64,000 nucleotides of DNA from Candidatus Nomurabacteria bacterium (GTDB taxonomy: Bacteria > Patescibacteriota > Minisyncoccia > Phycocordibacterales > UBA9973). Under the pieces are notes generated by a model. It saw nothing but the letters and a program-made list of their open reading frames with translations. It was not told where the DNA came from and did not search any database. A program made the translations under genes and the position numbers. This document shows, one piece after another, positions 19,733 through 61,874 of the stretch (the stretch's first letter is position 1; each line of letters opens with the position of its first letter). The stretch lies in NCBI GenBank assembly GCA_023898605.1, contig CP060230.1, forward strand, positions 321,304 to 385,303. The letters are read 5' to 3'.

Positions 19733-19819
19733 GGAGACGTGGCTGAGTGGTCGAAAGCGCCTCACTGCTAACGAGGTGTCCCGTCAAAAGGACCGTGGGT
19801 TCGAATCCCACCGTCTCCG
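19733..19819 (+). tRNA. tRNA-Ser (anticodon GCT), long variable arm
   Basis: Acceptor GGAGACG/CGTCTCC, anticodon loop CTGCTAA, variable arm TGTCCCGTCAAAAGGACCGT, T-arm GGGTTCGAATCCC. Confidence 0.8.
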
Positions 19820-19849
19820 CAATAAATCTGACCGCACCCCGCCACAATT

Positions 19850-19948: not shown

Positions 19949-20000
19949 AGGCGCAAAACATGAAAAATCACTTTAAAAAATGTTAATATAAGGGCACGAT

Positions 20001-20867
20001 ATGGATTTTCCTAAACAGACAATTTTAATAACTGGCGCAACAGGGGGATTAGGAAAGGTGCTTGCAAGGGAGCTTGCTAATAAAAGCAGTACTTTAATTC
20101 TAACTGCTCGAGAAAAAGAAAAACTTGAGTCTTTAAAAAAAGAACTTGAACCTTTTTATGAAAAAATTATCATTCAGCCAGCAAACCTTTTAGAAGATGA
20201 AGACCGAAGAAAAATTGAAGAATTAGCAAAGGAAACCACTATTCTTATAAATAACGCAGCAATTTTCGGAACAGACATAAAATCAGTTGGCGAACGAGAT
20301 ATAAACGAAGAATCGAATATAAATAAACTAAATGTCCAAGTGCCGGGCCGATTATCATTTTTTGCTCTTTCTAATATGAGAGATAAAAAATACGGAAGAA
20401 TAATAAACGTTGGATCCACTTCTGGTGTATTTAAATACACTGGTAGAAGTTCATACAGCTGTTCAAAAATAGCATTGTTAAGGCAAACTGAAACTGTTAA
20501 CCAAGAAATAATTGAGAGTATTGGTGGTGATTATAAAGATAAAGAAACTGATAAGTATATTGACGTCTTTGCTTTTTATCTAGCCCCAGGTCCAATGGAA
20601 TCAAGTAAAAGCGCTGAAGAAGTAATATTAAAAAGAGCTGAAAGTTTAAACGTATCAAAAGACGAAATGGCAGAAAAATATAAAATGTATGAAAATGCTA
20701 ATACTGGTGAAAAAACAATGCTTGATTCAAAAGCAGTTGTTGAAAAAGTTATCGAAATATTAAAGCCACTAGGGCAACTTGAATATAAACAACGTAAAGA
20801 GATTAATGAGATCATTACAGATTTTCCCCCATACTCTCTTATTAAAAAGACAAAAAGTCAGAAGTAA
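20001..20867 (+). CDS. Short-chain dehydrogenase/reductase (SDR) family oxidoreductase
   Basis: N-terminal TGATGGLG Rossmann motif and a YxxxK-like catalytic region; 288 aa. Confidence 0.7.
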   Translation: MDFPKQTILITGATGGLGKVLARELANKSSTLILTAREKEKLESLKKELEPFYEKIIIQPANLLEDEDRRKIEELAKETTILINNAAIFGTDIKSVGERDINEESNINKLNVQVPGRLSFFALSNMRDKKYGRIINVGSTSGVFKYTGRSSYSCSKIALLRQTETVNQEIIESIGGDYKDKETDKYIDVFAFYLAPGPMESSKSAEEVILKRAESLNVSKDEMAEKYKMYENANTGEKTMLDSKAVVEKVIEILKPLGQLEYKQRKEINEIITDFPPYSLIKKTKSQK

Positions 20868-21230
20868 ATATTTTTTATGTTAAATTTTGAAAAAAAATAA
20901 AATTGAACAGATAAAGAGAGAAGCACAATCAAAAGATGCTCTGTTAGAAGAACTAGAAAACGTCAAATCCTAAGAGTTATTAAAAAATATACTTTTAGAG
21001 CTTATTGAGTTTAAAGAATGGAAATCAGTTATTGAAAATATAGAAAAGTTCTCAATAGATGATCAAAAAGAAGTGGCCATTAAAATAATCGAAAACGGTG
21101 GAGTGGAACATATTGAATTAAATTTGCCAGTGTTTAATTCTCAAATTCAAGGTGAAATTTAAAAAGCTGTCTTAAAAAACCTTGAATCAAAGTGCGTGCT
21201 AAACTCATTAACTTACTTTTGATTGCGTCT

Positions 21231-21415
21231 GTGCCCAAAAAACAAAAAGTGAAGCCCGCGCAGACCCCCCAGACCCCTCCTCCGCGCGGAACACAGCCGA
21301 GGTTTTGCGAATCCGTGTCCCCAGAAAATTGTTTCGCAAAACCGAGTCCATTTTATTAGTTTTAATCATTTGGATTTTGCTCGAAATAGTTTCGAACTTT
21401 GTCTAGTAAGTACCG
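21231..21415. repeat. Copy of the 200-nt repeat family, same orientation as the 52017-52219 copy, including the right 31-bp inverted repeat of the SDR cassette
   Basis: About 85% identical to 52058-52215. Compensatory changes keep both stems paired: GGTTTTGCGAA/TTCGCAAAACC versus GGCAGGGCGAA/TTCGCCCTGCC. Ends on an ACCGCA core at 21407-21411. Confidence 0.65.
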
Positions 21416-21485
21416 CAGTAAGAACTTATTATCGGCGTGACCCACAGGCTTAAGATTGTGGGGCGACCCGAATACATACAATAAA

Positions 21486-21528: not shown

Positions 21529-21542
21529 GGTCGCTGAGGCCG

Positions 21543-21887: not shown

Positions 21888-22095
21888 AATTACCTCCTTT
21901 GTTTAGGTTGACTGTCTGAACGGGATACTACCAGATATATCCCGATAAGTCTAGAATCTAGAGAAAACTGACCTAGACCCGCATACCTATTTCAAGCTCC
22001 AAAAGTCTGCTAAAATGTCCTTATGGGGTCTCGCCAATTTGGTACTGAACCCCACGTGGTCTACGACGGTAAAAAACTGATGCTATACTACCTTA

Positions 22096-22458: not shown

Positions 22459-22481
22459 TTTGTTGATGCTATACTACCTTA

Positions 22482-23066
22482 ATGGAAAAACCAAAGGTTA
22501 GATTTATATACGCTTATCCTCTAGATGTATCTAGAAGAAACTTAGCAGAAGAAAGAGGTATAGATTATCCTTCTGTAGAAAAAATAATAGAAACAAAAGA
22601 TAACTGGGAGAGGTTATGGGAATCATTCGAAAAAGAAAATAGTGTAATCAATCTTATACAAGAAATTACAAAAAATACTCCAGACAGGAGCCTAGAGTGT
22701 TTTGTTGTAGGCGGCATGATGAGTTCGATGTCTGCCCCGTTTATCGTAACTACACTAAGAAGGGGTGCCGATCGAAGTGATGAAGACTTTATAGATACAA
22801 TGATTCACGAACTTCTTCATATATTTCTATCTAAAAAGAAAAGTTACTTTTCTTTTCTTGGAAATAAATACGAGGCAGAAACAAAACTGACACAAAACCA
22901 TATACCAATATATGCCATGCTAGAAAAAATTTATGAGGAAGTATTTAAATCTAAACCATTAGATTATTCTAGAAATGATATACCGGTTGATTACCAGAAA
23001 GCAGTAGATATAGTAAAAAAGGAGGGTTATAAAAATATATTGGAAGATTATTACCAAAATATATAA
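22482..23066 (+). CDS. Hypothetical protein with an HExxH motif
   Basis: 194 aa containing ...DTMIHELLHIF..., a possible metallopeptidase-like site. Shares the duplicated 26-nt start-region motif. Confidence 0.4.
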   Translation: MEKPKVRFIYAYPLDVSRRNLAEERGIDYPSVEKIIETKDNWERLWESFEKENSVINLIQEITKNTPDRSLECFVVGGMMSSMSAPFIVTTLRRGADRSDEDFIDTMIHELLHIFLSKKKSYFSFLGNKYEAETKLTQNHIPIYAMLEKIYEEVFKSKPLDYSRNDIPVDYQKAVDIVKKEGYKNILEDYYQNI

Positions 23067-23071
23067 TTAAA

Positions 23072-24115
23072 ATGGAAAAAGAATTTGATCAATCTAATAC
23101 AAAAACATGTCCAGCTGGATTAATTGATCTTTTTAATAAAACATATTCTGAAAGATTAGAAAATTGTATACCACTTGAAGCACATGCATCCACAAGAAGA
23201 TATTACATACTAAAATCAAAAAGTTACGAAACATTGGGTGCTACGGGCGATGACCCACAAGAAAACAAGGCCTTTGTAAAACTTGCGAAACATTTAACAA
23301 AAAATGGTGTTAACGTGCCTAGAGTTATTTCACACACCGATGATTATAAATTCTATATACAAGAACTTTGTGATCAAGTAGATTTATTTTCTCTTGTAAC
23401 AAAATATCCAGAAAAACAAATAGAACTTTTAACAAAAGCGATTGATCTTCTTGTAAATTTTCAAAAAAAAGGAACTATTGGATGGGATTATTCTGATTCT
23501 TATCCATTTAAATCTTTTGATTCAAAAGAAATAAATAATAACTTTAAAAGACTAAGTGAATATTTATTGGGAAGCATAAATATAAGTTTCAATAAAAAAA
23601 TCCTTGATGATTTTGAAAAAATCTTAATAAGAGAAATAGAGTCAATACCGAAAAATGAATATGTACTAATGCATAGGGATTTTCAATCTAGAAACATACT
23701 TATAAACAAAGAAATTTATACACTCATAGACTTTCAAGGATCAAGAAGTGGCCCAAAACATTATGATTTGGCATCTTTACTATTCCAGTCTAGAATAAAT
23801 TGGAAAAAAGAAAGTCAGGAATATCTTTTAAATTATTATTTAAATCTTAATAAAGAAATAGACGATCGAGATCTTTTTATTAAAAATTTCTACTTTTTGG
23901 GAGCTGTGAGAATAATACAAGCACTTGGATCATATGGAATAGCAATTTATTTAAACAATAAAAAATCCTTTCTAGCTAGTATAACGCCAGCCTTAAAAAA
24001 CTTAAGGGAAATTACTGAGGTTTTAAATAAAAGATACAAAATAAATACTGATAAAACAGTAGAATTAATAGACGAATTAATAATATTTTTTTCTAAAAAT
24101 GATACATCTATATAG
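23072..24115 (+). CDS. Aminoglycoside phosphotransferase (APH)/choline-kinase-like kinase; possible anomeric sugar kinase, AmgK-like
   Basis: 347 aa with an HRDFQSRNILI catalytic loop (HxDxxxxN) and a downstream IDFQGS (DFG-like) motif. Confidence 0.6.
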   Translation: MEKEFDQSNTKTCPAGLIDLFNKTYSERLENCIPLEAHASTRRYYILKSKSYETLGATGDDPQENKAFVKLAKHLTKNGVNVPRVISHTDDYKFYIQELCDQVDLFSLVTKYPEKQIELLTKAIDLLVNFQKKGTIGWDYSDSYPFKSFDSKEINNNFKRLSEYLLGSINISFNKKILDDFEKILIREIESIPKNEYVLMHRDFQSRNILINKEIYTLIDFQGSRSGPKHYDLASLLFQSRINWKKESQEYLLNYYLNLNKEIDDRDLFIKNFYFLGAVRIIQALGSYGIAIYLNNKKSFLASITPALKNLREITEVLNKRYKINTDKTVELIDELIIFFSKNDTSI

Positions 24116-24488
24116 CTTTTCTTATAAAAAGAGTGCGAGAGTAGAACATGATCCAGAATCATTGCAATATATTTTTGATTGTAGACCTATACTAAACCCA
24201 GGAAGAATACCGGATCTTTTGCCCAAAAATGGAAAAGATAAGGATGTGATAGAATATTTGGAAACAAAAACAAAAATGCCAAAATTTATTGAGTCAATAA
24301 AAGGTATAGTAGAAATAGCCGTTGAAGAATATTTAGAAAAAAAAGAAAGATACAAAGAATTACATATTTATTTTGGTTGTACGGGTGGACAGCATAGATC
24401 TGTTTACTGTGCAGAAAAAATAAAATCTTATATAGAAGAATATTTTAAATTGGAATTATTATTAACCCATAAAGAATTAAAAAGTTAA
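24099..24488 (+). CDS. RapZ/YvcJ C-terminal-domain-like protein
   Basis: 129 aa containing ...IFDCRPILNPGRIPDL... and ...YFGCTGGQHRSVYCAEKI..., resembling the conserved C-terminal region of RapZ-family proteins. Confidence 0.45.
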   Translation: MIHLYSFSYKKSARVEHDPESLQYIFDCRPILNPGRIPDLLPKNGKDKDVIEYLETKTKMPKFIESIKGIVEIAVEEYLEKKERYKELHIYFGCTGGQHRSVYCAEKIKSYIEEYFKLELLLTHKELKS

Positions 24489-24493
24489 AAATT

Positions 24494-25210
24494 ATGAAAT
24501 TAGTTGTATTGGCAGCGGGAAAAGGATCAAGATTTTACCCCATAACAAAAAAAATACCGAAGGGGCTTGTCCCAATATTAGGAAGGCCGATGCTTGAGTA
24601 TGTATTGGCGCCATATATGGATCATATTTCCGAAATAATAATGGTTGTTAATAGTGACCTCGGACACCTTATAAAAAATCATTTTACAAACGAATACAAA
24701 GGAAAACCAATTACGTATATAGTACAACCAAATGAAGGTCCAAAAGGGACTTTTTCTTCTCTAAGTTTATGCAAAGATCATCTGAGTGATAATGATGTTT
24801 TTTGTGTTTCAAACTGCGATGATTTACTCGAGCCAAAACAAATGAAAGAAGCTCTGAAATCAAAAAAGATAGGCCTTGGTGTTACAAAGTCTAAAATGCC
24901 TTGGTACTATCTTGGTATAAAAACTGACAACGGAATAGTAAAAGGTTTTGAAAGATACTCCAAAGAAAATGGTGAATTTATAACAAACGACTTTGCAAAT
25001 GGATTTTATATTTTATCCAAAGGTGTACTTGATTTTAAACCAGTAGAAACAAGAGATGGTGAACATGGTTTGCCGCAAACAATTTTTGAAAATATTAATT
25101 CTTATGAAATGGAAACCCACCAAGTTGATGAGTGGCAGGCAGTAAACGGACCAGATGACCTAGAAAATGCAGAGTTATTTGTGAAAAAACACTTCAGTGG
25201 ATTAAATTAA
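24494..25210 (+). CDS. Sugar-phosphate nucleotidyltransferase (MurU/GlmU-N-like)
   Basis: N-terminal MKLVVLAAGKGSRFYPITKKIPKGLVPILGRPMLEYV, an NTP_transferase signature; 238 aa. Confidence 0.7.
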   Translation: MKLVVLAAGKGSRFYPITKKIPKGLVPILGRPMLEYVLAPYMDHISEIIMVVNSDLGHLIKNHFTNEYKGKPITYIVQPNEGPKGTFSSLSLCKDHLSDNDVFCVSNCDDLLEPKQMKEALKSKKIGLGVTKSKMPWYYLGIKTDNGIVKGFERYSKENGEFITNDFANGFYILSKGVLDFKPVETRDGEHGLPQTIFENINSYEMETHQVDEWQAVNGPDDLENAELFVKKHFSGLN

Positions 25211-25211
25211 A

Positions 25212-26024
25212 ATGGAAAAAGAACCTACCAAAAATAAAATTATAGAAATAGAGCCTCGCGGTTCGTATTTCGAAGTCGATGAAGAAGGATATCTCATAAA
25301 TCCAGCGAGCGAAGAAAAAATCCAAGAAAAATGGCGTCCCGTGATAGATGATGTAGTAGAACTATACAAAGATGCCTATGGTGACAAACTAAAGCAAGTA
25401 TATATAAGAGGCTCTGTTGCAAAGGGTGAAGCAGTAGAAAACGTGTCAGACATAGACACTTTCGCTATTGTAGATTTATCAAAAGAAGACTTGAATGTAG
25501 CAAAAGAAATAAAAGATGCTAGAAAAGAATTAGAGCAAAAATATCCTTTTGTAAACGGTATAGAATTTGAACCAAGGTTAAAATCTAATTTCAATAAAAA
25601 CGATATAATACTTTCTCAATCTCTTTGCATACATGGAGAACCGCTTGAAACACCAAAAAGAAAACCTGGAAAAGAAATGTCTATACATGCAAGCTATATA
25701 AAACAGAATCTAAGCTGGATTAAAAATTTTCTAGAAAAAGATGAGAGTGAAGAAGAAATAAAAAATGCTTGCACTTGGGTCACAAAAGTAATTCTGCGAA
25801 CTGGTTTTGAAATAACAATGGAAAGATCCAAGAGGTATACTCGTGACTTATATAAATGTTACGAAACTTTTAGAGAATACTATCCGGAAAAAGAAGAAGA
25901 GATGCGAGAAGTCCTACACTACGCTCTGAACCCAACAAGTGACAAAGAAAAGATACGAGAAATAGTTGGTGGTATAGGTCAATGGCTCCTAGAAGAGTCC
26001 AAAGAATACTTCGAGGGCAAATAA
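25212..26024 (+). CDS. Nucleotidyltransferase, ANT(3'')/ANT(9)-like (minimal nucleotidyltransferase plus a C-terminal helical domain)
   Basis: hG[GS]...DhD motif in IRGSVAKGEAVENVSDIDTFAIV; 270 aa. Confidence 0.5.
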   Translation: MEKEPTKNKIIEIEPRGSYFEVDEEGYLINPASEEKIQEKWRPVIDDVVELYKDAYGDKLKQVYIRGSVAKGEAVENVSDIDTFAIVDLSKEDLNVAKEIKDARKELEQKYPFVNGIEFEPRLKSNFNKNDIILSQSLCIHGEPLETPKRKPGKEMSIHASYIKQNLSWIKNFLEKDESEEEIKNACTWVTKVILRTGFEITMERSKRYTRDLYKCYETFREYYPEKEEEMREVLHYALNPTSDKEKIREIVGGIGQWLLEESKEYFEGK

Positions 26025-26025
26025 A

Positions 26026-26052
26026 CAAAAAAACCCATATGGGTTTTTTTGT
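26026..26052. terminator. Rho-independent terminator
   Basis: AAACCCATATGGGTTTTTTT. Confidence 0.5.
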
Positions 26053-26076
26053 TGTTCCGTTTCCAGTGCTAAATAA

Positions 26077-26388
26077 TTAATTAATGTTTGAATCTCTTAT
26101 AACCCATACAGGTGAAGCGAGATCCCATCCAACCAAGTCATTACCAAATTTTCTTTTCAGAGAGTCAGAAGTTTTGTCGAAGTACTCATCATAGGCACTT
26201 TCGTGGTCTTTATCTTCAGATAGTTTGTAAGTAAAACCTACCCCCATCTGATCTTTTGATACTTTTCTAATATAGACTTGAAGGTATCTATCGTCTTCAG
26301 AGAAAGATTCTGCAAGCTCTATTAGTTGTTGTTCTGTTATATTACCACCGAACTTCCAAAGTCCCATAGCTACTGTTGTGTTTTTCAT
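26077..26388 (-). CDS. Hypothetical protein
   Basis: 103-aa ORF with clean boundaries and no recognisable motif. Confidence 0.35.
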   Translation of the reverse strand: MKNTTVAMGLWKFGGNITEQQLIELAESFSEDDRYLQVYIRKVSKDQMGVGFTYKLSEDKDHESAYDEYFDKTSDSLKRKFGNDLVGWDLASPVWVIRDSNIN

Positions 26389-26528
26389 AATTGTGAAAGT
26401 AAATTAAAGTTAATAAAAGGAAAGGAACTTTAATATTATACCATATAATAATTACTCTTGTCAAATATATAAAACCCCCTATTTTCTTCAACTTGTACTA
26501 TTTCCCTATTTATTAGATAATAGAAACT

Positions 26529-26888
26529 ATGAGTAAAGTACTTATCGTAGAAGACGACGCATTCCTACAAGGAATCATGGCTACCAAGCTTTCAAAAGAA
26601 GGTTTTGTTATCGTCACAGCAGACTCTGCCGAAGAAGGCAAAAACAAGCTAGAAGAAAGTCCAGACATCATAATCCTAGACCTACTCCTGCCAGAAGGAG
26701 ATGGTTTCCAAGTCATGGAGGTTATGAGAGAGAAAGGCATGAAAACTCCTGTTATCGTCTTCTCCAACCTAAACACAGAAAAAGATTTCAAGAGAGCACA
26801 AGAATTCGACATGATGCGTGAGTATATGGTCAAGAGTAACTTCACACTAGAAGAATTGATCGAGAAAATGCACGCTATCTTGGGATAA
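26529..26888 (+). CDS. Response regulator receiver-domain protein (CheY-like, single domain)
   Basis: VLIVEDD...DIIILDLLLPEGDG...K: phospho-acceptor Asp and Lys pattern; 119 aa. Confidence 0.75.
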   Translation: MSKVLIVEDDAFLQGIMATKLSKEGFVIVTADSAEEGKNKLEESPDIIILDLLLPEGDGFQVMEVMREKGMKTPVIVFSNLNTEKDFKRAQEFDMMREYMVKSNFTLEELIEKMHAILG

Positions 26889-26892
26889 CTTC

Positions 26893-29055
26893 ATGAACCT
26901 CGGTGATAGTATCGAAAAAAACTTTAGACTAACTGAAGCACAAAAGAAAGCGCTCAAAAGATTGAAGATCTCTAGTATAAAAGATCTTCTTTTTTATTTT
27001 CCAGAAAGGTACAGTGCTATATCAGAACTACACTTCATAAACGAACTAACCGAGGGAGAGAACGCCACAATACTCGGCAAAATAATAGACGCCAAAACAA
27101 AAAAATCTTTCAAGTCGAAAATCCCAATGGGCGAAGCAACTCTCGAAGACCCAACAGGAAAAATCAAAATAGTCTGGTTTAACCAAGCATATCTTGCCAA
27201 GATGTTTGTGGCTGGAGACATAGTTCAAGTTTCTGGAAAAGTAAGTCTCGACAAGAAAGGTGAGAAAACTCTGACAAACCCAGAAATCAAGAAAACTCCA
27301 CTTTCTCCTATCGACCTACACTCTACCCTTTTCTACAAAGAAGAATCTCTAGAAGCCGAAGTTCAGTACCCGATATACAGAGAAACACGAGGCATAACTT
27401 CCAAGTGGATATATCACACAATAGAAAAGATAGTTTCTGCCAAAGTCCTAGACGAGATACAAGAATACATACCAGAAGAAATCCTGACTCGGTACAAACT
27501 CCCCTCTCTCAAAACTGCACTTATATGGATACACCTCCCCAAGAAAGAAGCCGACGCTATAGCCGCTAGGAAAAGATTTGCGTTCGAAGAAGTTTTCTTC
27601 ATACAGCTCGGTAGACATATAGATAGAAAGAACTGGCGAGAAAACAAAACATACGAAATAGAGGTAGACCAAGAACTCCAGAAAAAGTTTGAAAAGAACT
27701 TTGGTTTTTCTCTGACAGAAGGTCAGAACAAAGTGATAAACGATATTTTCTCCGACATAGAGAAAGACTCTCCGATGTCTCGCCTTCTCGAAGGAGATGT
27801 AGGCAGCGGAAAGACTGCAGTTGCAGCGAGCATAACAAAACAAGTTGTCTCGACTAGGCCACCTGGACAAAAGTTTGGAAATCTACAAGTCGCATACATG
27901 GCGCCGACAGAGATATTGGCAAGACAGCTTTTTGACAGCTTCACAGAATATTTCAAAAACGATCCGATACAAGTCGGACTCATAACTGGTAGTGGTGCGA
28001 GAAAATTCCCTTCCAAGGTTTATGGTGAGAAATCTACCAATATCTCTCGCCCACAACTCCAGAAATGGGTAAAGAACGGCGAGATACCAGTTCTGATCGG
28101 AACACATACACTTATACAGAAAAGTGTAGAGTTTCGCGATCTTGCTCTTGTGATCATCGATGAACAACATCGTTTCGGTACCAACCAGAGAGCAAGTCTC
28201 GCGAAAAAGTCTGGCTTTGCGCCACACCTGCTTTCTATGACAGCGACACCTATACCCAGAACTCTTGCTCTTACTATATATGGTGACTTGGACCTTTCTG
28301 TTTTGGATCAAATGCCGATGGGAAGGAAAAGTGTCGTAACAGAAATCGTAAAAGAAAACGACAGAGATGAAGCATATGAAAAGATAAAAGAAGAACTAGA
28401 AAACGGAAGACAACTATATGTCATATGTCCGAGGATAGATGAACCAGACGAAACAAAAGAAAAAGCGCTACAAGTAAAAAGTGTGACAACAGAAACAAGA
28501 AGACTCAAAAAAAATGTTTTTCCGGACTACAACATAGAATACCTTCACTCCAAGATGACAAAAGAAAAGAAAGAAAAGACAATGGAAAGATTCTTGAACA
28601 AAGAAATAGACATACTAGTTTCAACTAGTGTTATCGAGGTCGGGATCAATGTTCCGAACGCATCGGTTATGATCATAGAAGGAGCAGAAAGGTTTGGTCT
28701 AGCACAGCTACACCAGCTCCGCGGAAGAATCATGAGAGGAACGCACCAGCCGTACTGCTACCTTTTTGCAGATGTAAAAAGTGACAAGACACTAGAAAGA
28801 ATGAAAGCTATAAAAGAAGCCAAGAACGGTTTCGAACTAGCGGAGATTGATCTCGCTCAACGTGGTATGGGTATGCTTTCTGGAGAAAAACAATGGGGAC
28901 TATCTGACCTCGGAATGGAAGCGATCAAGAATATAAAAATGGTAGAAGCAGCGAGAGAAGAAGCCAAGAAAATAGTTGAAGAAGATAAACTAGAAAGTTA
29001 TACAAAACTAAAAACAGAATTGGAAAAACGAGATCTCAAAATCCACTTCGAATAA
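26893..29055 (+). CDS. recG: ATP-dependent DNA helicase RecG
   Basis: 720 aa with an N-terminal wedge domain, Walker A DVGSGKTAVA, a DEQH box (VIIDEQHRFG) and a C-terminal helicase domain. Confidence 0.85.
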   Translation: MNLGDSIEKNFRLTEAQKKALKRLKISSIKDLLFYFPERYSAISELHFINELTEGENATILGKIIDAKTKKSFKSKIPMGEATLEDPTGKIKIVWFNQAYLAKMFVAGDIVQVSGKVSLDKKGEKTLTNPEIKKTPLSPIDLHSTLFYKEESLEAEVQYPIYRETRGITSKWIYHTIEKIVSAKVLDEIQEYIPEEILTRYKLPSLKTALIWIHLPKKEADAIAARKRFAFEEVFFIQLGRHIDRKNWRENKTYEIEVDQELQKKFEKNFGFSLTEGQNKVINDIFSDIEKDSPMSRLLEGDVGSGKTAVAASITKQVVSTRPPGQKFGNLQVAYMAPTEILARQLFDSFTEYFKNDPIQVGLITGSGARKFPSKVYGEKSTNISRPQLQKWVKNGEIPVLIGTHTLIQKSVEFRDLALVIIDEQHRFGTNQRASLAKKSGFAPHLLSMTATPIPRTLALTIYGDLDLSVLDQMPMGRKSVVTEIVKENDRDEAYEKIKEELENGRQLYVICPRIDEPDETKEKALQVKSVTTETRRLKKNVFPDYNIEYLHSKMTKEKKEKTMERFLNKEIDILVSTSVIEVGINVPNASVMIIEGAERFGLAQLHQLRGRIMRGTHQPYCYLFADVKSDKTLERMKAIKEAKNGFELAEIDLAQRGMGMLSGEKQWGLSDLGMEAIKNIKMVEAAREEAKKIVEEDKLESYTKLKTELEKRDLKIHFE

Positions 29056-29057
29056 AA

Positions 29058-29083
29058 AAGCCGCACATAAAGTGCGGCTTTTG
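29058..29083. terminator. Bidirectional terminator between recG and the hydroxylase gene
   Basis: AAGCCGCACATAAAGTGCGGCTTTTG. Confidence 0.5.
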
Positions 29084-29091
29084 TTAAAAGA

Positions 29092-29997
29092 TCAAAGTTT
29101 AATTCTCTTTTTCATCTTCGCACCAGTTTTCTTTTCCAGATATTCTGGAAGTTTAACGGTGAGAGATTTTTGAAAATCCTTGAAGCTACCAATAACCCAA
29201 AGGTCATCTTGTTTGTGGTAGATCTCTTTTGGTGTCGAAAGCATGTGATCAAATGTCTCGAAGATTTTTTCGATTTTTATCTCATGGTGTCGAACGTTGG
29301 GACTTTCAAGAGAATAAATACACTCTTCTGGTGAAGATAGAATTCCTGGACCCACGATCCAAAGATTGTCATGTTTGTCGAGATTCAAAATGAACTCAAC
29401 CATATACCAGTGGATAAAATCCATTGCCTGCATAACCTTGATATCAAAGTTAAAGCCCTGCTCCACAGCCAAACCCGCCACCTGACTTACATCAGCAAAC
29501 GGCGTAAGGCTAAGAGCGGCTCCATGACCAAAAGGACCCTCGTGGAAATTGTCAGGCTTCGGAGTATAGTCTCTTTCTTCCCATGACCTTAAGTACAAGG
29601 TAGAAGGAAACATTCTCCTGGCATAACCAGCAAAAAGAACATCGTCTGGAGTCACGTCTTCGCTATAGTAATAACGAAAGTTACTTATCTCCTGAAGTCT
29701 TTTACTGAGAACACTTAATCTTGGAATACGATCTTTTTCCGGCCAGATTTTTTCTGATCCTTTTATAATTTCCGGGTGAACACGACCTGGCCAAACCTCA
29801 TCAATTGCTTTGACAAGATAGGCAAAGGTTTTGTGATCTTGCTCAGAATATCTATTTTCATAGTCCTGAACTTCGTCCCAGTCTATAGAAGCGAGTCTCG
29901 AGACTTCTTCTATAGCATTTGATTGTTTTGCCATAACTATTGTCAATTTTTTATCAATATAGTCTATTATGGAGATATAATCAATCAAAAAGCACAA
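29092..29997 (-). CDS. Aromatic amino acid hydroxylase (phenylalanine-4-hydroxylase-like)
   Basis: Contains ...YTPKPDNFHEGPFGHGAAL..., matching the iron-binding TPEPDxxHExxGH region of biopterin-dependent hydroxylases. Confidence 0.5.
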   Translation of the reverse strand: MCFLIDYISIIDYIDKKLTIVMAKQSNAIEEVSRLASIDWDEVQDYENRYSEQDHKTFAYLVKAIDEVWPGRVHPEIIKGSEKIWPEKDRIPRLSVLSKRLQEISNFRYYYSEDVTPDDVLFAGYARRMFPSTLYLRSWEERDYTPKPDNFHEGPFGHGAALSLTPFADVSQVAGLAVEQGFNFDIKVMQAMDFIHWYMVEFILNLDKHDNLWIVGPGILSSPEECIYSLESPNVRHHEIKIEKIFETFDHMLSTPKEIYHKQDDLWVIGSFKDFQKSLTVKLPEYLEKKTGAKMKKRIKL

Positions 29998-34856: not shown

Positions 34857-34867
34857 TTTTTGCTTAT

Positions 34868-35010
34868 TGTGCCCTCACTGCGTTATCAAGATTATTCAGT
34901 GCGTGCACTGCGAATTTTTATAAGATAAAAGTGCGTGCACTGCGAATTTTTATAAGATAAAAGTGCGTGCACTGCGAATTTTTATAAGATAAAAGTGCGT
35001 GCACTGCGAA
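34868..35010. repeat. Tandem direct repeat, 32-bp unit in about 4.5 copies, with no spacers
   Basis: The unit GTGCGTGCACTGCGAATTTTTATAAGATAAAA occupies 34899-34930, 34931-34962 and 34963-34994. A partial unit spans 34995-35010 and a degenerate copy lies at 34868-34898. Confidence 0.85.
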
Positions 35011-35025
35011 GCTTTAGCGAAGCAG

Positions 35026-35410
35026 TGGAAATGGGGGGAATCGAACCCCCGTGCAACAACTTCTCTACTATTCGTCTACATGTTTATTTCTATTTCGTAT
35101 CTCGATTACAAACTAAAAAATAGAACAAAACCGATTGTAATCTAACTCAAAATTTTTCGTGTCAGAAAGAGAGTGGCTTCCAGACCTTATCTCAGAAAGT
35201 ATTATACCCGTTATATCCACCCTGAGAAAAAGATATAGGGGCAGCTAGCGATTTATACGCGAGCGTAAGCAAAATCGTTCATACTAAAGTATGGAGATTT
35301 TACTGAAAATGCTTTTGCATTTATGTTTTGTGTCAAACTTTTACGAAAATAGGACACTTATTCGACATGCAAAATAACAAAGACGGCTATTGTCGATACC
35401 GATCATTCCC
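35026..35410 (-). ncRNA. ssrA: Candidate tmRNA (ssrA)
   Basis: The minus strand ends ...GGGGGTTCGATTCCCCC-CATTTCC-A (T-arm plus 3' acceptor strand) and begins GGGAATG-ATCGGTATCGAC, whose first 7 nt pair perfectly with CATTTCC. The gene is about 385 nt and lies immediately downstream of smpB. The tag ORF was not resolved. Confidence 0.5.
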
Positions 35411-35437
35411 CTAAATCATTTTGCTTTGCAAAATGAT

Positions 35438-35610
35438 CGGGCGAACATTTGCTTTATCAAGCAAATGTTTTAGCCATAAATCTTATATCACATTGATATA
35501 AGTCGGGCGAACATTTGCTTTATCAAGTAAATGTTTTAGCCATAAATCTTATATCACATTGATATAAGTCGGGCGAACATTTGCTTTATCAAGCAAATGT
35601 TTTAGCCATA
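35438..35610. repeat. Tandem direct repeat, 66-bp unit in about 2.6 copies, each containing two hairpins
   Basis: Units at 35438-35503 and 35504-35569, with a partial unit from 35570. Internal palindromes AACATTTGC-TTTATCAA-GCAAATGTT and ATATCA-CAT-TGATAT. Confidence 0.8.
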
Positions 35611-35621
35611 TAAGTAACTTC

Positions 35622-35885
35622 TTATGAGTTACTTTGTATATAACTTTTCAAAATTTTACTTTTTTCTCTTGCGCCCCAAAGACTTTTTAGAAACCTTTCT
35701 CGTTTGAAGGCCTCTGATTTATTATCAAAAATTTCTTTTTTAATCAAAACAATAGGTCTTCTGTTTTTGGTTGATTCCACAAAACCTGAATTATGTCTAA
35801 TCAATCTTTTTTCTAAATCAGAAGTACAACCAACATAAAGCTTCTTATCTTTTTCACTAAAAAGTATATATACAAAGTAACTCAT
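35622..35885 (-). CDS. Small GIY-YIG nuclease-domain protein
   Basis: MSYFVYILFSEKDKKLYVGCTSDLEKRLIRHNSG...; 87 aa. Confidence 0.65.
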   Translation of the reverse strand: MSYFVYILFSEKDKKLYVGCTSDLEKRLIRHNSGFVESTKNRRPIVLIKKEIFDNKSEAFKRERFLKSLWGAREKSKILKSYIQSNS

Positions 35886-49242: not shown

Positions 49243-49445
49243 TGCGGTGTTTGTTGGACAAAGTTCGAAGCTATTTCGAGCAAAATCCAAACGATTAAAA
49301 CTAATAAAATGGACTCGGCAGGGCGAAACAATTTGTCTGGGGGAATGGATTCGCCCTGCCTCGGCTGATTTCCCGCCCGCAGGAGGGGTCTGGGGAGGAA
49401 TGCGGGCGGGTTTCGGACTGGGGTTTTTCGGAAATTCAGCGGCTA
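49243..49445 (+). repeat. 203-bp inverted-repeat arm of the island (member of the 200-nt repeat family)
   Basis: Near-identical reverse complement of 52017-52219. Begins with the TGCGG core at 49243-49247 and contains the GC-rich hairpin CCCGCCCGCA...TGCGGGCGGG. Confidence 0.85.
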
Positions 49446-50837
49446 TGATTTTGGTATTGCTGGAAAATCAACAATTTTCCCAACACTATTTTTTATAACA
49501 TCTCGGCAACTTTTTGCAAAAACTTTATTGTTTGATTCTTTTATATATTTTGCAACACGAAAAAGGTCAGTTGTTCTTACCAAAGCACAATTTGAAGATT
49601 TTGCTGTAGTTATACATTTGGTTGTAAACTGTTCTGCTCGCTCGGATGGTTTTGTGAGTCGAAAGCCATTTCCAAATAGAATACCGACCGCAGGGTTTTC
49701 CACTTCATCTCTTTGCAAGTCTTCCTGAATATTTACTGCAAGTTGTCTAAACTTATCAATATTGACTGCGGAAGTGTCTTTACCCTCTGCTTCGCCGATA
49801 AAACGATCTCCCTCTGGCGAGGTGATAACATGATCTAATTCAAGATTTCCGTCATTATAATTTTCTGCCTTATAACCTAAAATCTCTAAGGCGGTAGTGA
49901 TTGCAGTTTCAAGCACTTTTCCTTTTTCAAATAGTAAATCTCTTAACTTAATTTCTTCATCAATCTTTGTTAGTAGCTCATTCTTTTGTAAAATCAGTTT
50001 CTCAATTTCTTTTGTTTTCTTTTCAACTTCATTTTTTAAAATCTGCTCTTGTGCTAATTGGTAATCCGTTTCATTCGTCCAATCTGGTGGCGGGGTTTTA
50101 TCTCCTCCTTTACGGAGAGCTTTATCAATATCAACAAGCGCCTTAACTAAAGATTTTCCAAATTGCGTTGCTTCTTTTGTCCAATATTCTTTTTTATCCT
50201 TGCCTTTAATTTCAGTAAACTTTTTCTCATCATAATTTATGTAGGGCAAAACAATTATGTTTCCATTTTTGACTTTATAAATTGCACCTAAAATCTTTGT
50301 TTTATCCTTGCCCGTAAAAAGAACCTGTGCACCTGTTGCGTTTTCTATATAAAGCTGGTACTCCAAACTTTTCTTGAATTTTTCATTAAAATCACTAAAC
50401 ACTGTATTTCCCGAAAATTCAACATGTTTTCCAGAGGCGGAAGTTAATGAGCCAATATTGATCGGCAAAAAAGCGTAGTTGTTATACATTTCCGTATGAA
50501 AAGTATTTTGCCCCTTTCTTTCCGATGAAACGCTACTGGCAAGCTGATATTCTTCTTTATTCGTTAAAAGAATAAAAACATTTTTCCCCGCATTTAAATA
50601 ATCTTCAATCTCTTTTCTTAAACGTGATATTTTTTGTTTGTAAGCTTGCGAAGCCGAAACATTGTAGCAACCTCCATCGCTTGTAGTGAAGCTAACCCAA
50701 TCTCCTCTTGGCACTAATGAATCAGGCGAAATCAATAGAATATCAGCATCCATCAAAGACTTACCATCGTAAAAATCAACGAGATTTGTGTCGAATGTTG
50801 GTATCGTATATCCAATTGTGAATATCTGATTTTCCAT
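49443..50837 (-). CDS. Hypothetical island cargo protein: unknown N-terminal domain, coiled-coil and possible PD-(D/E)xK-like C-terminus
   Basis: Start set at MENQIFTIGY (ATG 50835-50837), two nucleotides after the EamA stop. The central region is K/E-rich and helical. The C-terminus ...ELDHVITSPEGDRFIGEAEGKD... fits a D...ExK pattern. Confidence 0.45.
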   Translation of the reverse strand: MENQIFTIGYTIPTFDTNLVDFYDGKSLMDADILLISPDSLVPRGDWVSFTTSDGGCYNVSASQAYKQKISRLRKEIEDYLNAGKNVFILLTNKEEYQLASSVSSERKGQNTFHTEMYNNYAFLPINIGSLTSASGKHVEFSGNTVFSDFNEKFKKSLEYQLYIENATGAQVLFTGKDKTKILGAIYKVKNGNIIVLPYINYDEKKFTEIKGKDKKEYWTKEATQFGKSLVKALVDIDKALRKGGDKTPPPDWTNETDYQLAQEQILKNEVEKKTKEIEKLILQKNELLTKIDEEIKLRDLLFEKGKVLETAITTALEILGYKAENYNDGNLELDHVITSPEGDRFIGEAEGKDTSAVNIDKFRQLAVNIQEDLQRDEVENPAVGILFGNGFRLTKPSERAEQFTTKCITTAKSSNCALVRTTDLFRVAKYIKESNNKVFAKSCRDVIKNSVGKIVDFPAIPKS

Positions 50838-50839
50838 AG

Positions 50840-51730
50840 CTATACCAGTAAAATATAAACACCTGCAAACATAATTACTGCCCCGATAGATTTCTTTATC
50901 AGCACAGAAGTAGAAATATCCTCTTTGATAATGTGCGGAATAAAGAGTGTTAGTAGTATGCCAATTAGTATTGCGTAAAAGGACTGAACCTGCATAACAA
51001 CAGTAACTAACCCAGCAGATGGAGCTATAGCAAGAGCTTTCTTGATACTCATTTGACCGAAAAAGTCCAAGACATTGTTCCATGAAAACCAAATGTATTT
51101 TCCTGCTCTTGCAGTTCTAATTCCTTCAATGACTTGTTTGCGTATTGACGGAATAATAAACATTGTTAGTCCTGCTAAAGCAGAACCCAAATTGTCGAGC
51201 ATAAAATAATCCCAAAATGACATTTTCGTTAGCCCGTAATCTATGAGCAAAGTCATTATTGACCACATCAAAATCGCTATCAGTATCATCCCGAAACCCT
51301 TTATGAATATGCCTTTACTTTTTTCAAACGAGACAATCGTTGCGCCAACTAGAACAATCACGAATCCCAAAAGTTCATTTGAGGATAGTGTTTGACCCAA
51401 AAAAGTAAAGGCGAGTATTACAGTAATGACAGGAATGAGTTTAAAAAGAATCACAAGGGAAGATGTATCACCTTGTTCGAGAGCTTTTCCATAGAAGCCA
51501 TAGGAATAAATAAGTATCATTCCTGTTGCGATTGATATCAAAGAAAAAATATCGAGTTCTGGTCTTCCTGCAAAAATGAATATTCCCGCAAAGAATATCC
51601 AGCTAGTTATTGTTGAAAAGAAAACGAAATCAAAAATCCCTTTTGTATATTTACCGAGAATATATTTGTCCACAAAATTAGATGAAGCCCAAAATAGTGG
51701 CGCGAGTAGTGAGAGAAAAATCCAGCTCAT
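50840..51730 (-). CDS. EamA/DMT-family transporter
   Basis: 296 aa with 10 TM helices and a duplicated EamA pattern. Confidence 0.7.
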   Translation of the reverse strand: MSWIFLSLLAPLFWASSNFVDKYILGKYTKGIFDFVFFSTITSWIFFAGIFIFAGRPELDIFSLISIATGMILIYSYGFYGKALEQGDTSSLVILFKLIPVITVILAFTFLGQTLSSNELLGFVIVLVGATIVSFEKSKGIFIKGFGMILIAILMWSIMTLLIDYGLTKMSFWDYFMLDNLGSALAGLTMFIIPSIRKQVIEGIRTARAGKYIWFSWNNVLDFFGQMSIKKALAIAPSAGLVTVVMQVQSFYAILIGILLTLFIPHIIKEDISTSVLIKKSIGAVIMFAGVYILLV

Positions 51731-51731
51731 A

Positions 51732-51935
51732 TTATTTAATTAGCTCCTCAATATCAACATTGAGAGCTTTGGCTATTTTACTCACCACAAAAACCGAAGG
51801 TTTTTTGATGACACCTGTTTCGACCTTTGTAAGCGTTGTATAGGGGACATCCGCTTTACGAGCAAAATCGTCTTGAGAAAGACCTAATTTTGTCCGTAGT
51901 TTCTTGATTTTCTGTCCTAGTTGGTTACTTTCCAT
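51732..51935 (-). CDS. XRE-family helix-turn-helix transcriptional regulator
   Basis: ...LGQKIKKLRTKLGLSQDDFARKADVPYTTLTKVETG...; 67 aa. Confidence 0.75.
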   Translation of the reverse strand: MESNQLGQKIKKLRTKLGLSQDDFARKADVPYTTLTKVETGVIKKPSVFVVSKIAKALNVDIEELIK

Positions 51936-52016
51936 ATATTGATAACATAATACTGTTGCTTGTTTTCGCTTGCAGTATTATAATAACAAATATGAGAGAT
52001 TTATTCAATAATTTTG

Positions 52017-52219
52017 TAGCCGCTGAATTTCCGAAAAACCCCAGTCCGAAACCCGCCCGCATTCCTCCCCAGACCCCTCCTGCGGGCGGGAAATCAGCCG
52101 AGGCAGGGCGAATCCATTCCCCCAGACAAATTGTTTCGCCCTGCCGAGTCCATTTTATTAGTTTTAATCGTTTGGATTTTGCTCGAAATAGCTTCGAACT
52201 TTGTCCAACAAACACCGCA
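52017..52219 (-). repeat. 203-bp inverted-repeat arm, the partner of 49243-49445
   Basis: Reverse complement of 49243-49445. Ends on an ACCGCA core at 52214-52219 that is shared with the next repeat. Confidence 0.85.
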
Positions 52220-52333
52220 TCAAATCGGAATTCAAATTTCCGCCCAAAATATGGTCGGCGCGAAGCGCCGTCTGTTCTGAATTCCCCCCAAAAAATCCTG
52301 AATCTGCAAGGATTCGCCACGCTCCGCGTGGCT
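52215..52333 (-). repeat. 120-bp inverted-repeat arm, the partner of 53734-53853
   Basis: Reverse complement of the sequence immediately left of the tRNA-Ser junction. Contains the hairpin GCCACGC-GGAG-CGTGGC. Confidence 0.85.
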
Positions 52334-52353
52334 CCTCGTTTGCCAATACAATT

Positions 52354-53916
52354 ATGAAAAATCAAACCAAAAAGTTTTTTATTTATACTCGCAAGTCTAC
52401 GGACGACAAAGACAGACAAGTTCGCAGTATTTCTGATCAGTTAGCAGAACTGAAAGATTTGGCGTTAAAAGAACAACTGGAAATTGTTGATGTCTTTGTC
52501 GAAAAACAGACCGCCAAAATACCAGGTCGCCCAGTATTTAACGAAATGTTGGAAAGAATGGAAAAAGGCGAAGCATCTGGTATTTTGGCGTGGCACCCCG
52601 ATAGACTTGCAAGAAACAGCGTTGATGGTGGAAAAATTATTTATCTTGTTGATACCGAGATTATTCAAGATTTGAAATTCTCAACTTTTTGGTTTGATCC
52701 GACACCGCAAGGAAAATTCATGCTCTCAATTGCTTTTTCGCAATCCAAGTATTATGTGGACAACTTATCCGAAAACATAAAGCGAGGTCATCGCAACAAA
52801 GTGAAAGATGGAATATGGCCTCAAATGGCTCCACTTGGATATGTAAATAAAAATAGAAAGATTGTTCCCGATGAGAATATTGCACCTTTAATCAAGAAAA
52901 CATTTGAGGCATATTCTTCTGGATCTTTCACTTTGCGACAACTTCGCGACAAATTTAATGAACTTGGATTGAAGCGAAAAAGCGGAAAGGAGCTTGCGGT
53001 GTCGAATTATCAAAAACTTTTGAAAAATCCTATATACACAGGGCTAATGCTTTACAATGGCGAAATCCACGAGGGTAAGCACGAACCGATTATTACAAAG
53101 AAACTTTTTGACTCCGTTCAGGAAGTGATGATGAGAAAATCTAAACCTCACTCGAAAGGTCTAAAACCATTTTTATATAGAGGATTTTTCCGTTGCGGAG
53201 AATGTGGCTGTTTTATCACTACCGAAACACAAAAGGGTCATAACTATTTGCGATGTACCAAACGGAAAAATCCTTGCTCGCAAAAATACACTCGTGAGGA
53301 AATCATCACTTCCGAAATTCAAAAAGAAATCAAAAAAGTTTCTTTGCCAGACAATTGGGCTAAATGGATGTTAGCTGAAAACGAAAAGGATAAATTGGTT
53401 GAAGCCCAATCGTCTACGCTTTTTGCGGATTCAACAAAAGCCGATATTTCTCTTTTGGATTCCAAGATTGAGAAGCTGATGAACGCTTACCTAGAGAACG
53501 CACTTTCACTAGACGAATATCGAGATATGAAAAACAAACTTGTGAACGAAAAACAGCTTCTCAAAGAGAAATTATCAGCTTTTGAGCAAAAAGCGAATAA
53601 TCGGTTCGAACTTACCGAAAAGTTTTTGAAATACAATATAGAATTGGCAAACGAGGGAATAAATGAAGAGAAACTTCATTTATTCAAAAAAGTCGGTTCG
53701 AACTTTATTATTGAAGCTCGAACCGTACTTTTTGAGCCACGCGGAGCGTGGCGAATCCTTGCAGATTCAGGATTTTTTGGGGGGAATTCAGAACAGACGG
53801 CGCTTCGCGCCGACCATATTTTGGGCGGAAATTTGAATTCCGATTTGATGCGGAGACGGAGGGATTCGAACCCTCGAAGGCTTTCACCTTGCCACCTTTC
53901 CAAGATGGTGCACTAG
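52354..53916 (+). CDS. Large serine recombinase (resolvase/invertase N-terminal domain, recombinase domain, zinc ribbon and coiled-coil)
   Basis: Start set at MKNQTKKFFIYTRKSTDDKDRQ... (ATG 52354). ...ILAWHPDRLARN... is the resolvase catalytic domain; CGECGCF...C is the zinc ribbon. The last roughly 60 codons run through the right 120-bp repeat and into the tRNA, so the true C-terminus is uncertain. Confidence 0.75.
   Translation: MKNQTKKFFIYTRKSTDDKDRQVRSISDQLAELKDLALKEQLEIVDVFVEKQTAKIPGRPVFNEMLERMEKGEASGILAWHPDRLARNSVDGGKIIYLVDTEIIQDLKFSTFWFDPTPQGKFMLSIAFSQSKYYVDNLSENIKRGHRNKVKDGIWPQMAPLGYVNKNRKIVPDENIAPLIKKTFEAYSSGSFTLRQLRDKFNELGLKRKSGKELAVSNYQKLLKNPIYTGLMLYNGEIHEGKHEPIITKKLFDSVQEVMMRKSKPHSKGLKPFLYRGFFRCGECGCFITTETQKGHNYLRCTKRKNPCSQKYTREEIITSEIQKEIKKVSLPDNWAKWMLAENEKDKLVEAQSSTLFADSTKADISLLDSKIEKLMNAYLENALSLDEYRDMKNKLVNEKQLLKEKLSAFEQKANNRFELTEKFLKYNIELANEGINEEKLHLFKKVGSNFIIEARTVLFEPRGAWRILADSGFFGGNSEQTALRADHILGGNLNSDLMRRRRDSNPRRLSPCHLSKMVH
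53734..53853 (+). repeat. 120-bp inverted-repeat arm abutting tRNA-Ser(GGA)
   Basis: See 52215-52333. Confidence 0.85.
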
Positions 53917-53935
53917 ACCGCTATGCGACGTCTCC
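53851..53935 (-). tRNA. tRNA-Ser (anticodon GGA), long variable arm
   Basis: Minus strand: acceptor GGAGACG/CGTCTCC, D-arm GCATAGCGGTCTAGTGC, anticodon stem-loop CCATC-TTGGAAA-GGTGG, variable arm, T-arm GAGGGTTCGAATCCCTC. Confidence 0.8.
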
Positions 53936-61570: not shown

Positions 61571-61652
61571 AGTAAACTTTATTATAGCATGAAAAAAACC
61601 GTTTTAGATAAACAAAAAACCCTTTAATCTAGAGACTATTCTAAAAAACTTT

Positions 61653-61705
61653 GTGCTGGCGACAACCTACTTTTCCCTAAAAGAGTATCATCGGCTCAAC
61701 AAGGC
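61653..61705 (-). pseudogene. Partial 5S rRNA copy (3' half only), downstream of the intact 5S
   Basis: A 53-nt stretch identical to the 3' half of the intact 5S, after which the sequence diverges. Confidence 0.6.
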
Positions 61706-61764
61706 CCATCCAAACTATGTTTGAATGGGTAAACTTAACCCCGAACGAAAAAATTCATTACTTA

Positions 61765-61874
61765 GTGCTGGCGACAACCTACTTTTCCCTAAAAGAGTAT
61801 CATCGGCTCAACAAGGCTTAACTTCTCTGTTCGAAATGGGAAGAGGTGTGACCCTTGTGACAAATCACCAACAC
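61765..61874 (-). rRNA. rrf: 5S rRNA
   Basis: Minus strand GUGUUGGUGAUUUGUCACAAGGGUCACACC...CCGAUGAUACUC...GGUUGUCGCCAGCAC. Helix I ends pair, and the order of conserved segments matches bacterial 5S. Confidence 0.75.

Follow-up and report, generated by a model that had tools for sequence, protein, structure and literature searches.

An integrative element of Patescibacteria with nested perfect inverted repeats, probably moved into the 3' ends of tRNA-Ser genes by a large serine recombinase

The cassette at tRNA-Ser(GGA)

We analyzed a 64,000-nucleotide (nt) stretch of contig CP060230.1 (Candidatus Nomurabacteria bacterium, positions 321,304 to 385,303; here called the window), in which a gene for a large serine recombinase (LSR), a module of cargo genes, and two pairs of long inverted repeats form a cassette at the 3' end of a tRNA-Ser gene. 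An earlier note, made from the letters of this DNA, had described a family of structured repeats with near-identical inverted copies at 49243-49445 and 52017-52219. In a self-comparison of the window, these two copies (arms A' and A) proved to be an inverted repeat of 203 nt that is 100% complementary. A second perfect inverted repeat of 120 nt (arms B and B', 52215-52334 and 53734-53853) brackets the LSR gene; it begins at the very core where arm A ends, and its far copy ends at the 3' end of tRNA-Ser(GGA). Read from the tRNA, the order is tRNA-Ser / CCGC / B - LSR - B' / GCGG / A' - cargo - A / CCGC / flank. The parts of the cassette, with the hairpins of arm A numbered HP1 to HP3, are as follows.

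49243..49445, minus strand: arm A', inverted relative to arm A, at the cargo end farther from the recombinase; the host flank adjoins its outer end, GCGG (49244-49247); HP1 at 49317-49360, HP2 at 49372-49410
49446..52016, minus strand: cargo module of three genes, all directed away from the recombinase
49443-50849, minus strand: cargo protein of ~464-468 amino acids (aa) without a Pfam match
50840-51730, minus strand: cargo gene for an EamA transporter (Pfam)
51732-51935, minus strand: cargo gene for an XRE-type helix-turn-helix protein (HTH; Pfam)
52017..52219, plus strand: arm A, the copy next to the recombinase, defined by the perfect inverted repeat, its fold, and an end conserved in >140 arms; it comprises the inner 35 nt, HP2 at 52052-52090 (loop TTCCTCCCCAGACCCCTCC), HP1 at 52102-52145, a T-rich spacer, and an outer part with the HP3 palindrome at 52183-52197, TTCGAAC at 52193-52199, and the core CCGC at 52215-52218
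52215..52334, plus strand: arm B, directly upstream of the LSR gene, starting at CCGC, with hairpins CGGCGCGAAGCGCCG and CCACGCTCCGCGTGG
52354..53916, plus strand: LSR (Pfam Resolvase PF00239, Recombinase PF07508, Zn_ribbon_recom PF13408)
53734..53853, minus strand: arm B', the inverted copy of B 3' of the LSR gene; its end, GCGG (53850-53853), is also the tRNA 3' end
53850..53935, minus strand: tRNA-Ser(GGA), the occupied target (ARAGORN, Rfam); its 3' end, ...GTCTCCGC, provides the left attachment half-site

The arms have a G+C content of ~49%, compared with ~35% for the genome. The element measures 4-8 kb and carries no phage or conjugation genes. The LSR has the catalytic serine motif YTRKST at residues 11-16, is ~26% identical to TP901-1 integrase, and matches the structures of the A118 and SPbeta integrases. 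Its conserved part spans 460 aa and ends at 53733; the open reading frame (ORF) has no stop there and reads on (window 53734-53916) through B' and 67 nt into the tRNA-Ser gene. Together, A and B (~325 bp) make up the region between the divergent HTH and LSR genes, a region that would, by its form, be the element's attP.

A palindrome, ATAATACTG-N17-CAGTATTAT, lies between the HTH gene and arm A (window 51952-51986), and a similar one is kept in locus L204 (loci outside the window carry labels of this form). It overlaps promoter-like sites on both strands (51952-51986 and 51980-52012) and is likely the operator of an HTH/recombinase switch. The idea that the HTH protein binds the hairpin loops was dropped in favor of this better operator candidate.

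Junctions at CCGC, movement, and recurrence

The end of the arm is conserved as ...TTCGAACTTTGTCCAACAAACACCGC (GATTTTGCTCGAAATAGTTTCGAACTTTGTCCAACAAACACCGC in >140 arms), and similarity is lost right after CCGC, where what comes next is arm B or else unrelated DNA, in many cases a terminator hairpin. The earlier note had placed the ends of the copies at TGCGG/CCGCA; all copies do end at this core, but the part of it that is common across loci is CCGC only. The arm B sequence follows the tRNA-Ser 3' end in other genomes too, coming after the CCGC(CA) of intact tRNA-Ser genes whose acceptor stems vary between genomes. Hybrid junctions of the forms tRNA/CCGC/B and A/CCGC/flank occur in >100 loci. 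Because similarity breaks at CCGC in all junctions, the crossover would fall within CCGC. The expectation that the copies abut both the core and tRNA-Ser genes held for the core; it is arm B' that adjoins the tRNA-Ser gene, while arm A adjoins DNA that was formerly 3' of the tRNA.

Over 7.4 kb, a conspecific contig, L206, matches the window at 99.8-100% identity. Its positions 1-2864 correspond to window positions 52106 down to 49243, i.e., to the cassette including the far arm. This arm joins at CCGC to AATAAATCTGACC... (AATAAATCTGACCGCACC...), the sequence that in the window lies 3' of tRNA-Ser(GCT), from 19821 onward; beyond the junction, L206 is syntenic with window 21254-22103 and then with 25211-29815. 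The same cassette is thus found at tRNA-Ser(GGA) in the window and beside the tRNA-Ser(GCT) flank in L206, and from its presence at two tRNA-Ser flanks in conspecifics we conclude that the element moves site-specifically. Three features known from LSR-mobilized elements are present here: the catalytic motif and domain set, hybrid junctions at a short core, and the same element at different targets, with one and the same target occupied or free. The two contigs also differ in gene content at a second place, where L206 is without ~3.1 kb (window 22104-25210, several small genes; L206 ~3771-3779).

Two other readings of the junctions were rejected. If the crossover dinucleotide were palindromic (CG/GC in CCGC) and integration orientation free, tRNA/A' and B'/flank junctions would be expected, and these were not seen. 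The "GATTCGAA" motifs beyond arm A had been read as inverted tRNA fragments, that is, as a palindromic target duplication; longer sequences of L101, L114, and L116 overturned this, and the motifs belong to a forward gene of ~150-175 nt. This unknown, gene-like structured sequence is often found 3' of tRNA-Ser genes (L101 1826-1980, minus strand; L116 4137-4312, plus strand; L106 ~100-250, plus strand; also L078, L093, and L114). Its 5' end, GGAG.., is followed by a hairpin and then by GTGAGAGATTCGAAAGCCGGAGCG; it has an internal motif, GAGTGACTGACGA, and a tRNA-like 3' end, ..GACCGAATCTC..CTCCGCA, that is also used as an insertion site. Neither Rfam nor ARAGORN gave a match to it.

The cassette is widespread. 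The LSR has >7,700 homologues; the best 120 are 85-97% identical to it and have source names from several Patescibacteria lineages, with lengths of 490-625 aa, a spread that arises because the ORF continues across B' into the following sequence. A pattern scan for the arm end, limited to one genome per species, returned at least 120 loci, mostly in Patescibacteria metagenome-assembled genomes; a few records bear other phylum labels (labels as deposited). An LSR-centered scan of metagenomes contributed 80 further loci. The order A - B - LSR - B' - tRNA-Ser, with the LSR directed at the tRNA, recurs in ~76 loci (14 genome loci and ~62 of the 80 metagenome loci), and three loci seemingly without arm A hold a more diverged one. 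Five tRNA-Ser isoacceptors serve as insertion loci (anticodons gga, gct, tga, cga, and act). Two near-complete genomes have such nested repeats around different cargo: in L001, which has copper-resistance cargo, the repeats A (277 nt) and B (120 nt) are both at 100%, and in L002, whose cargo consists of restriction-modification genes and an AAA_13 ATPase, A (204 nt) is at 100% and B (131 nt) at 97%. The median repeat length in 44 A'/A pairs is 202 nt, and 29 pairs are perfect. Across lineages, arms that are 90-100% identical accompany LSRs with the 85-97% identity given above. The arm pattern had no match in 2.9 million viral contigs. Full-text literature searches found no description of this element, and the nested perfect inverted-repeat layout seems undescribed.

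In view of these observations, the repeats are likely to form arm A of a small integrative element whose insertion into tRNA-Ser 3' ends is the work of the LSR. The earlier note had offered a recombinase-bound att arm as one candidate, and the locus agrees with it: the outer end of the arm adjoins the crossover core, the LSR gene lies 135 nt away, and tRNA-Ser genes are the targets. In the mechanism that we propose, the LSR would bind the outer ~25-55 nt of A and of B, plus the 3' part of the tRNA, and would cut inside CCGC, with strand exchange as in other LSRs. A/CCGC/B would then be the circle junction after excision. Inverted copies of the attP-like halves lie at both outer ends, each module being bracketed by a perfect inverted repeat.

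Arms, hairpins, and alternative explanations

Further copies of the arm lie around tRNA-Ser(GCT).

19733..19821, plus strand: tRNA-Ser(GCT), core CCGC at 19817-19820; unoccupied by the active element in the window, occupied in L206
19822..19956, plus strand: mosaic P1, the tRNA-proximal remnant, with an inverted hairpin-1-like unit, HP2 at 19888-19923 with a flipped loop, and an inverted 31-42-nt end
20001..20867, plus strand: short-chain dehydrogenase (Pfam), cargo of the old element
21223..21417, plus strand: arm A2 of the old element, with HP2 at 21254-21289, HP1 at 21301-21343, and the end CCGCA at 21413-21417

The earlier note had recognized both repeat copies here, as an ~85% identical one at 21231-21415 and a partial mosaic at 19850-19948; each extends a little farther than stated. 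A2 covers 21223-21417 and is 82.6% identical to arm A over 172 nt and 88% identical over the last 92 nt. The mosaic covers 19821-19956, directly 3' of tRNA-Ser(GCT), and is built from three pieces: the inverted hairpin-1-like unit (94% match at 19844-19861), a 36-nt HP2 identical to that of A2 (19888-19923 = 21254-21289), and a 42-nt stretch that is the reverse complement of the A2 start. It presents a third stem sequence around the same HP1 loop. The claim of "four or more copies" thus holds for three full copies and one partial copy, with no more in the window.

A2 ends in CCGCA and is followed by the native downstream flank of the tRNA. In L119 and L210, arm A of the same cargo is joined directly to the flank found 3' of A2 in the window, and for this reason we take 19822-21417 (mosaic, dehydrogenase, and A2) to be an older, recombinase-less element between tRNA-Ser(GCT) and its original downstream DNA. 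Within it, the 1,366-nt dehydrogenase segment 19924-21289 is situated between two direct copies of the 36-nt HP2 and has inverted 31-42-nt ends. This segment is absent from L206, which keeps a single hairpin (L206 2931-2966); the difference would reflect either loss of the segment by deletion between the 36-nt repeats or its gain at the hairpin. On the downstream side of the insertion point, GTAAGAACTTATTATCGGCGTGACCCACAGGCTTAAGATTGTGGGGCGACCCGA is conserved (window 21418-21470; L119, L085, L028, and L031) and appears to be the native region after tRNA-Ser(GCT).

The two hairpins and the small third one that the earlier note had drawn exist at the positions listed above, and they differ in conservation. 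Measured as the mean minor-allele fraction across 74 type-1 arms, variation is lowest in HP2, the most conserved part of the arm (stem, 0.7%; loop, 1.1%), and increases through the terminal 49 nt (1.9%), the HP1 stem (2.5%), the HP2-HP1 linker (4.4%), and the HP1 loop (8.5%) to the spacer after HP1 (9.7%). The terminal ~55 nt are common to every arm type. Upstream of this part there are several unrelated arm sequence types, nearly all of them GC-rich and hairpin forming, and a few arms consist of the terminal part alone (L004, L063, L077, and L082). The outer ~55 nt together with CCGC make up what is likely the half-site of the recombinase. The distance between TTCGAA and CCGC is 16 nt in arm A, compared with 11 nt for the TTCGAA of the tRNA T-arm. 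In work on the A118/LI integrase, a 5-bp shift of the zinc-ribbon-domain motif reportedly separates attP from attB half-sites; the 5-bp offset seen here may be a lead to a comparable attP/attB mark.

Because its loop is as conserved as the putative half-site, HP2 must, on this comparison, have a sequence-specific role. The loop, TTCCTCCCC-AGA-CCCCTCCT, is a pyrimidine mirror repeat (window 52062-52080 and 49382-49400; L001 ~9646; L002 ~9820), type-2 arms have CCCCCC-ACA-CCCCCC or its complement at the hairpin apex, and C4-N-C4 motifs are almost confined to arms. Pyrimidine mirror repeats can form triplex or i-motif/G-rich structures. T-rich tracts lie inward of HP2 and outward of HP1. HP1 and HP2, with loops of 19-22 nt and weak or interrupted T-runs, were not called by the terminator scan, and we rejected them as canonical terminators on that account; the arm B hairpin CGGCGCGAAGCGCCG is the sole hairpin called terminator-like, and this call holds in both directions.

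The stem differences between A and A2 are compensatory, as the earlier note had claimed, with changes on both sides of the stems. When 75 arms are aligned, 98.8% of the cells in the three hairpins pair and HP3 is invariant. Double changes occur in 6 of 27 pairs and stem from two lineages, A2 and a GGCAAGG/CCTTGCC group of eight arms. Among single stem changes, G.T (16 cells) and A.C (17 cells) are equally frequent; an RNA made from one strand should favor one of them, and such an RNA is therefore not favored. The argument that covariation indicates selection for structure is weaker than it first seemed: the stems do pair, but the double changes come from two lineages only, and the single ones show no strand bias. 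In a DNA palindrome, templated correction can likewise produce block changes in both arms, and compensatory stem changes in a palindrome of mobile-element DNA need not mean RNA. To judge by the alignments, the hairpins are real and maintained, HP2 is sequence constrained, and a role at the DNA level or on both strands agrees better with the data than does a strand-specific RNA, which is less likely. Our best guess is that the hairpins work in the DNA itself or through both strands and serve the attachment region as boundaries or as structural elements; they might, for instance, block transcription from one module into the next, or offer a site for binding or for structure formation.

Several points weigh against the proposed element and its mechanism. 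No excised circle or empty tRNA-Ser(GGA) site was recovered, and exact-protein look-ups of the flanking GIY-YIG and HtpX-like genes, made in search of the empty site, returned no record. The internal A/CCGC/B junction has the sequence expected of a circle junction, and contigs show both alike. To our knowledge, sites of ~40-50 bp without accessory arms suffice for the LSRs that have been studied, so that recombination alone leaves the 200-nt arms unexplained. Nor does the terminator scan help: since it did not call HP1 and HP2, their barrier role is a guess. An integrated element has hybrid sites at both ends and, inside, an intact attP-like site in inverted orientation; with ~five tRNA-Ser genes at hand, a spare functional attP would be dangerous, which argues that it is silenced or is not a true attP. 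How the recombinase binds, exactly where it cuts, and what the extra attP-like copy does are deduced from sequence. Finally, short-read assembly collapses repeats, and the perfect identity of the arms and some module orientations may partly be assembly effects; two long contigs agree with the remaining loci.

Could the arm instead encode a structured RNA from one strand, either a small RNA whose C-rich loops pair with G-rich ribosome-binding sites or the LSR mRNA's long structured leader? We regard this as quite unlikely. The strand with the C-rich loops does fold well (z = -4.3 against shuffles, compared with z = -2.3 for the other strand), its loops contain a CCUCC-like sequence, and in type-1 arms it has the same sense as the cargo transcripts at the far arm and as the LSR gene at the near arm. 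A weak promoter-like ATAACA-18-AATAAT (51983-52012) would place a transcript start at arm A's inner edge, and pairing is kept while the stems differ in A, A2, and the mosaic. However, the equal numbers of G.T and A.C changes speak against it, as does the apex of related type-2 arms, which is C rich on either strand (a comparison that is weak when made directly). In the mosaic, the hairpin-1-like unit is inverted relative to local transcription; the 36-nt HP2 is in direct orientation relative to A2, with the flank inverted. No Rfam family matched the arms or recurrent flanks, whether at the gathering threshold over the window or at a permissive E of <= 1-5 over part of the window and eight related loci; the unit has no canonical terminator at its bounds, and neither the LSR gene nor the HTH gene has an obvious G-rich ribosome-binding site for the C-rich loops to mask. 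The mobile-element small RNA that the earlier note had named as its other candidate thus lacks an Rfam match as well as a clear promoter and terminator bounding the repeat, and it is not supported here. A guide-RNA role like that of the IS110 bridge RNA was rejected, because the loops do not vary, whereas the target tRNAs differ in the sequence of their acceptor stems.

Other explanations concern the exchange and orientation of the modules. The HTH protein (65-90 aa) is present in 42 of 45 cassettes, the other cargo falls into >85 unrelated clusters, and an identical HTH protein was found with three different cargos; cargo exchange on a fixed backbone therefore happens, and the long conserved arms would serve well as homology for it. 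The LSR module has the canonical orientation in ~76 of 79 loci and is flipped in three (L188, L131, and L127), and the cargo is directed away from the LSR in ~40 of 45 cassettes, with L146 and L204/L208 versus L207 as exceptions. L127 runs from B'/A' into the far end of a cargo, which may fit an excised circle or a path error; the flipped contigs may be real isomers or mis-joins at repeats. Frequent flipping is not supported, because orientation is nearly fixed and all exceptions are short-read contigs that cross repeats longer than the k-mer, which makes path errors possible. For this reason an inversion switch, in which the recombinase or homologous recombination flips the cargo and LSR modules as in Hin/Gin or the yeast 2-micron plasmid, seems unlikely, even though both modules are bracketed by inverted repeats with the core in opposite orientation at their outer ends, arm pairs are identical within an element and different between elements, as expected under continued recombination, and the few flipped assemblies exist. 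The arms being identical, a flip changes no junction and has no evident expression consequence; we also know of no LSR that recombines two like sites without a partner factor. Less probable again is that HP2 is a folded recombination site for cargo insertion or exchange, loosely comparable to integron attC. In its favor are the strong conservation of HP2, the very variable cargo on a constant backbone, and the precise absence from L206 of 19924-21289, which lies between identical direct copies of the 36-nt HP2. This absence is a single case that slippage or homologous recombination between 36-nt direct repeats explains equally well; in normal elements the cargo boundary is ~35 nt inside HP2, within the element or next to it there is no tyrosine recombinase, and the substrate of LSRs is duplex DNA. 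About as improbable as the one-strand RNA is a two-module "landing pad," in which the inverted second attachment region and a non-B-DNA HP2 (a cruciform, a triplex, or a G-/C-rich fold) would let cargo swap or flip on the constant backbone, driven by the recombinase or by host recombination with DNA that these bacteria, being naturally competent, take up; if true, the element would amount to an integron-like cassette system based on a serine recombinase. We give practically no weight to an assembly artifact as the source of the inverted repeats. Many contigs break at arms, and short-read assemblers can mis-join at inverted repeats, but the same nested layout recurs in ~76 independent assemblies, including a 743-kb chromosome-level record and a 914-kb contig.

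Elsewhere in the window, the tmRNA gene (35025-35410) has tandem repeats on both sides (34866-35016 and 35437-35634), a 32-nt unit present four times and, across the gene, a 66-nt unit present three times. A 58-nt direct repeat (98% identical; 61648-61705 and 61760-61817) overlaps the 3' part of the 5S rRNA gene (61766-61872), which suggests a partial 5S duplication.

Significance and closest known systems

Patescibacteria have tiny genomes with few recognized mobile elements, and here one backbone is found across many lineages, with payloads that include restriction-modification, copper-resistance, transporter, and many unknown genes. The cassette is thus likely a major route of gene exchange in this group. 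For work on recombinases, it provides a compact enzyme whose target, the tRNA-Ser 3' end, is universal and highly conserved, together with an unusual site architecture that models needing only ~50-bp sites leave unexplained.

Among known systems, the element resembles LSR elements and prophages (TP901-1, A118/LI, phiC31, Bxb1, and SPbeta SprA) in its three-domain recombinase, in the position of the recombinase gene next to the attachment region, and in the very short identity between element and target (here CCGC), with hybrid junctions flanking the insert. It differs from them in that identity to the nearest characterized enzyme is only ~26%, the target is the 3' end of any tRNA-Ser gene, and both attP-like halves are present twice, as perfect inverted repeats of 120 nt and 200 nt; moreover, it is 4-8 kb in size, without phage or conjugation genes, and absent from viral contigs. 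SCCmec/Ccr cassettes share a constant serine-recombinase backbone with very variable cargo, insertion at the 3' end of a conserved RNA-related gene, and tandem accretion at one site, to which the old remnant at tRNA-Ser(GCT) may be compared. SCC elements, however, measure 20-60 kb, usually encode two recombinases, have short direct repeats at their bounds, and target rlmH; we know of no long nested inverted repeats described for them.

Like Hin/Gin/Cin and the 2-micron Flp/FRT system (599-bp inverted repeats), the element has a recombinase gene in or beside a segment bracketed by inverted repeats that bear the crossover site, and its predicted circle, like the 2-micron plasmid, would be split into two unique segments by two inverted copies of one region. 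Hin, Gin, and Cin, in contrast, as small serine recombinases, depend on an enhancer and use sites of 26-34 bp, Flp belongs to the tyrosine recombinases, and, unlike in the switches, one orientation strongly dominates here. With integron attC sites, the hairpins share imperfect palindromes whose structure is kept while the stem sequence changes and that adjoin exchangeable gene cassettes. However, attC recombines in the form of a folded single strand, through the tyrosine recombinase IntI, which is missing here, and the crossover at CCGC lies ~125-165 nt from the hairpins. The loops flipped relative to their flanks, in the mosaic versus A2 and at type-2 arm apices, recall the hairpin-loop inversions of chloroplast noncoding DNA, which are a mutational pattern and no functional system. 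Taken together, the comparisons suggest that the element is a variety of the known LSR-moved elements, set apart by its nested perfect inverted repeats, the retained attP-like copy, its small size, and its cassette-like cargo.

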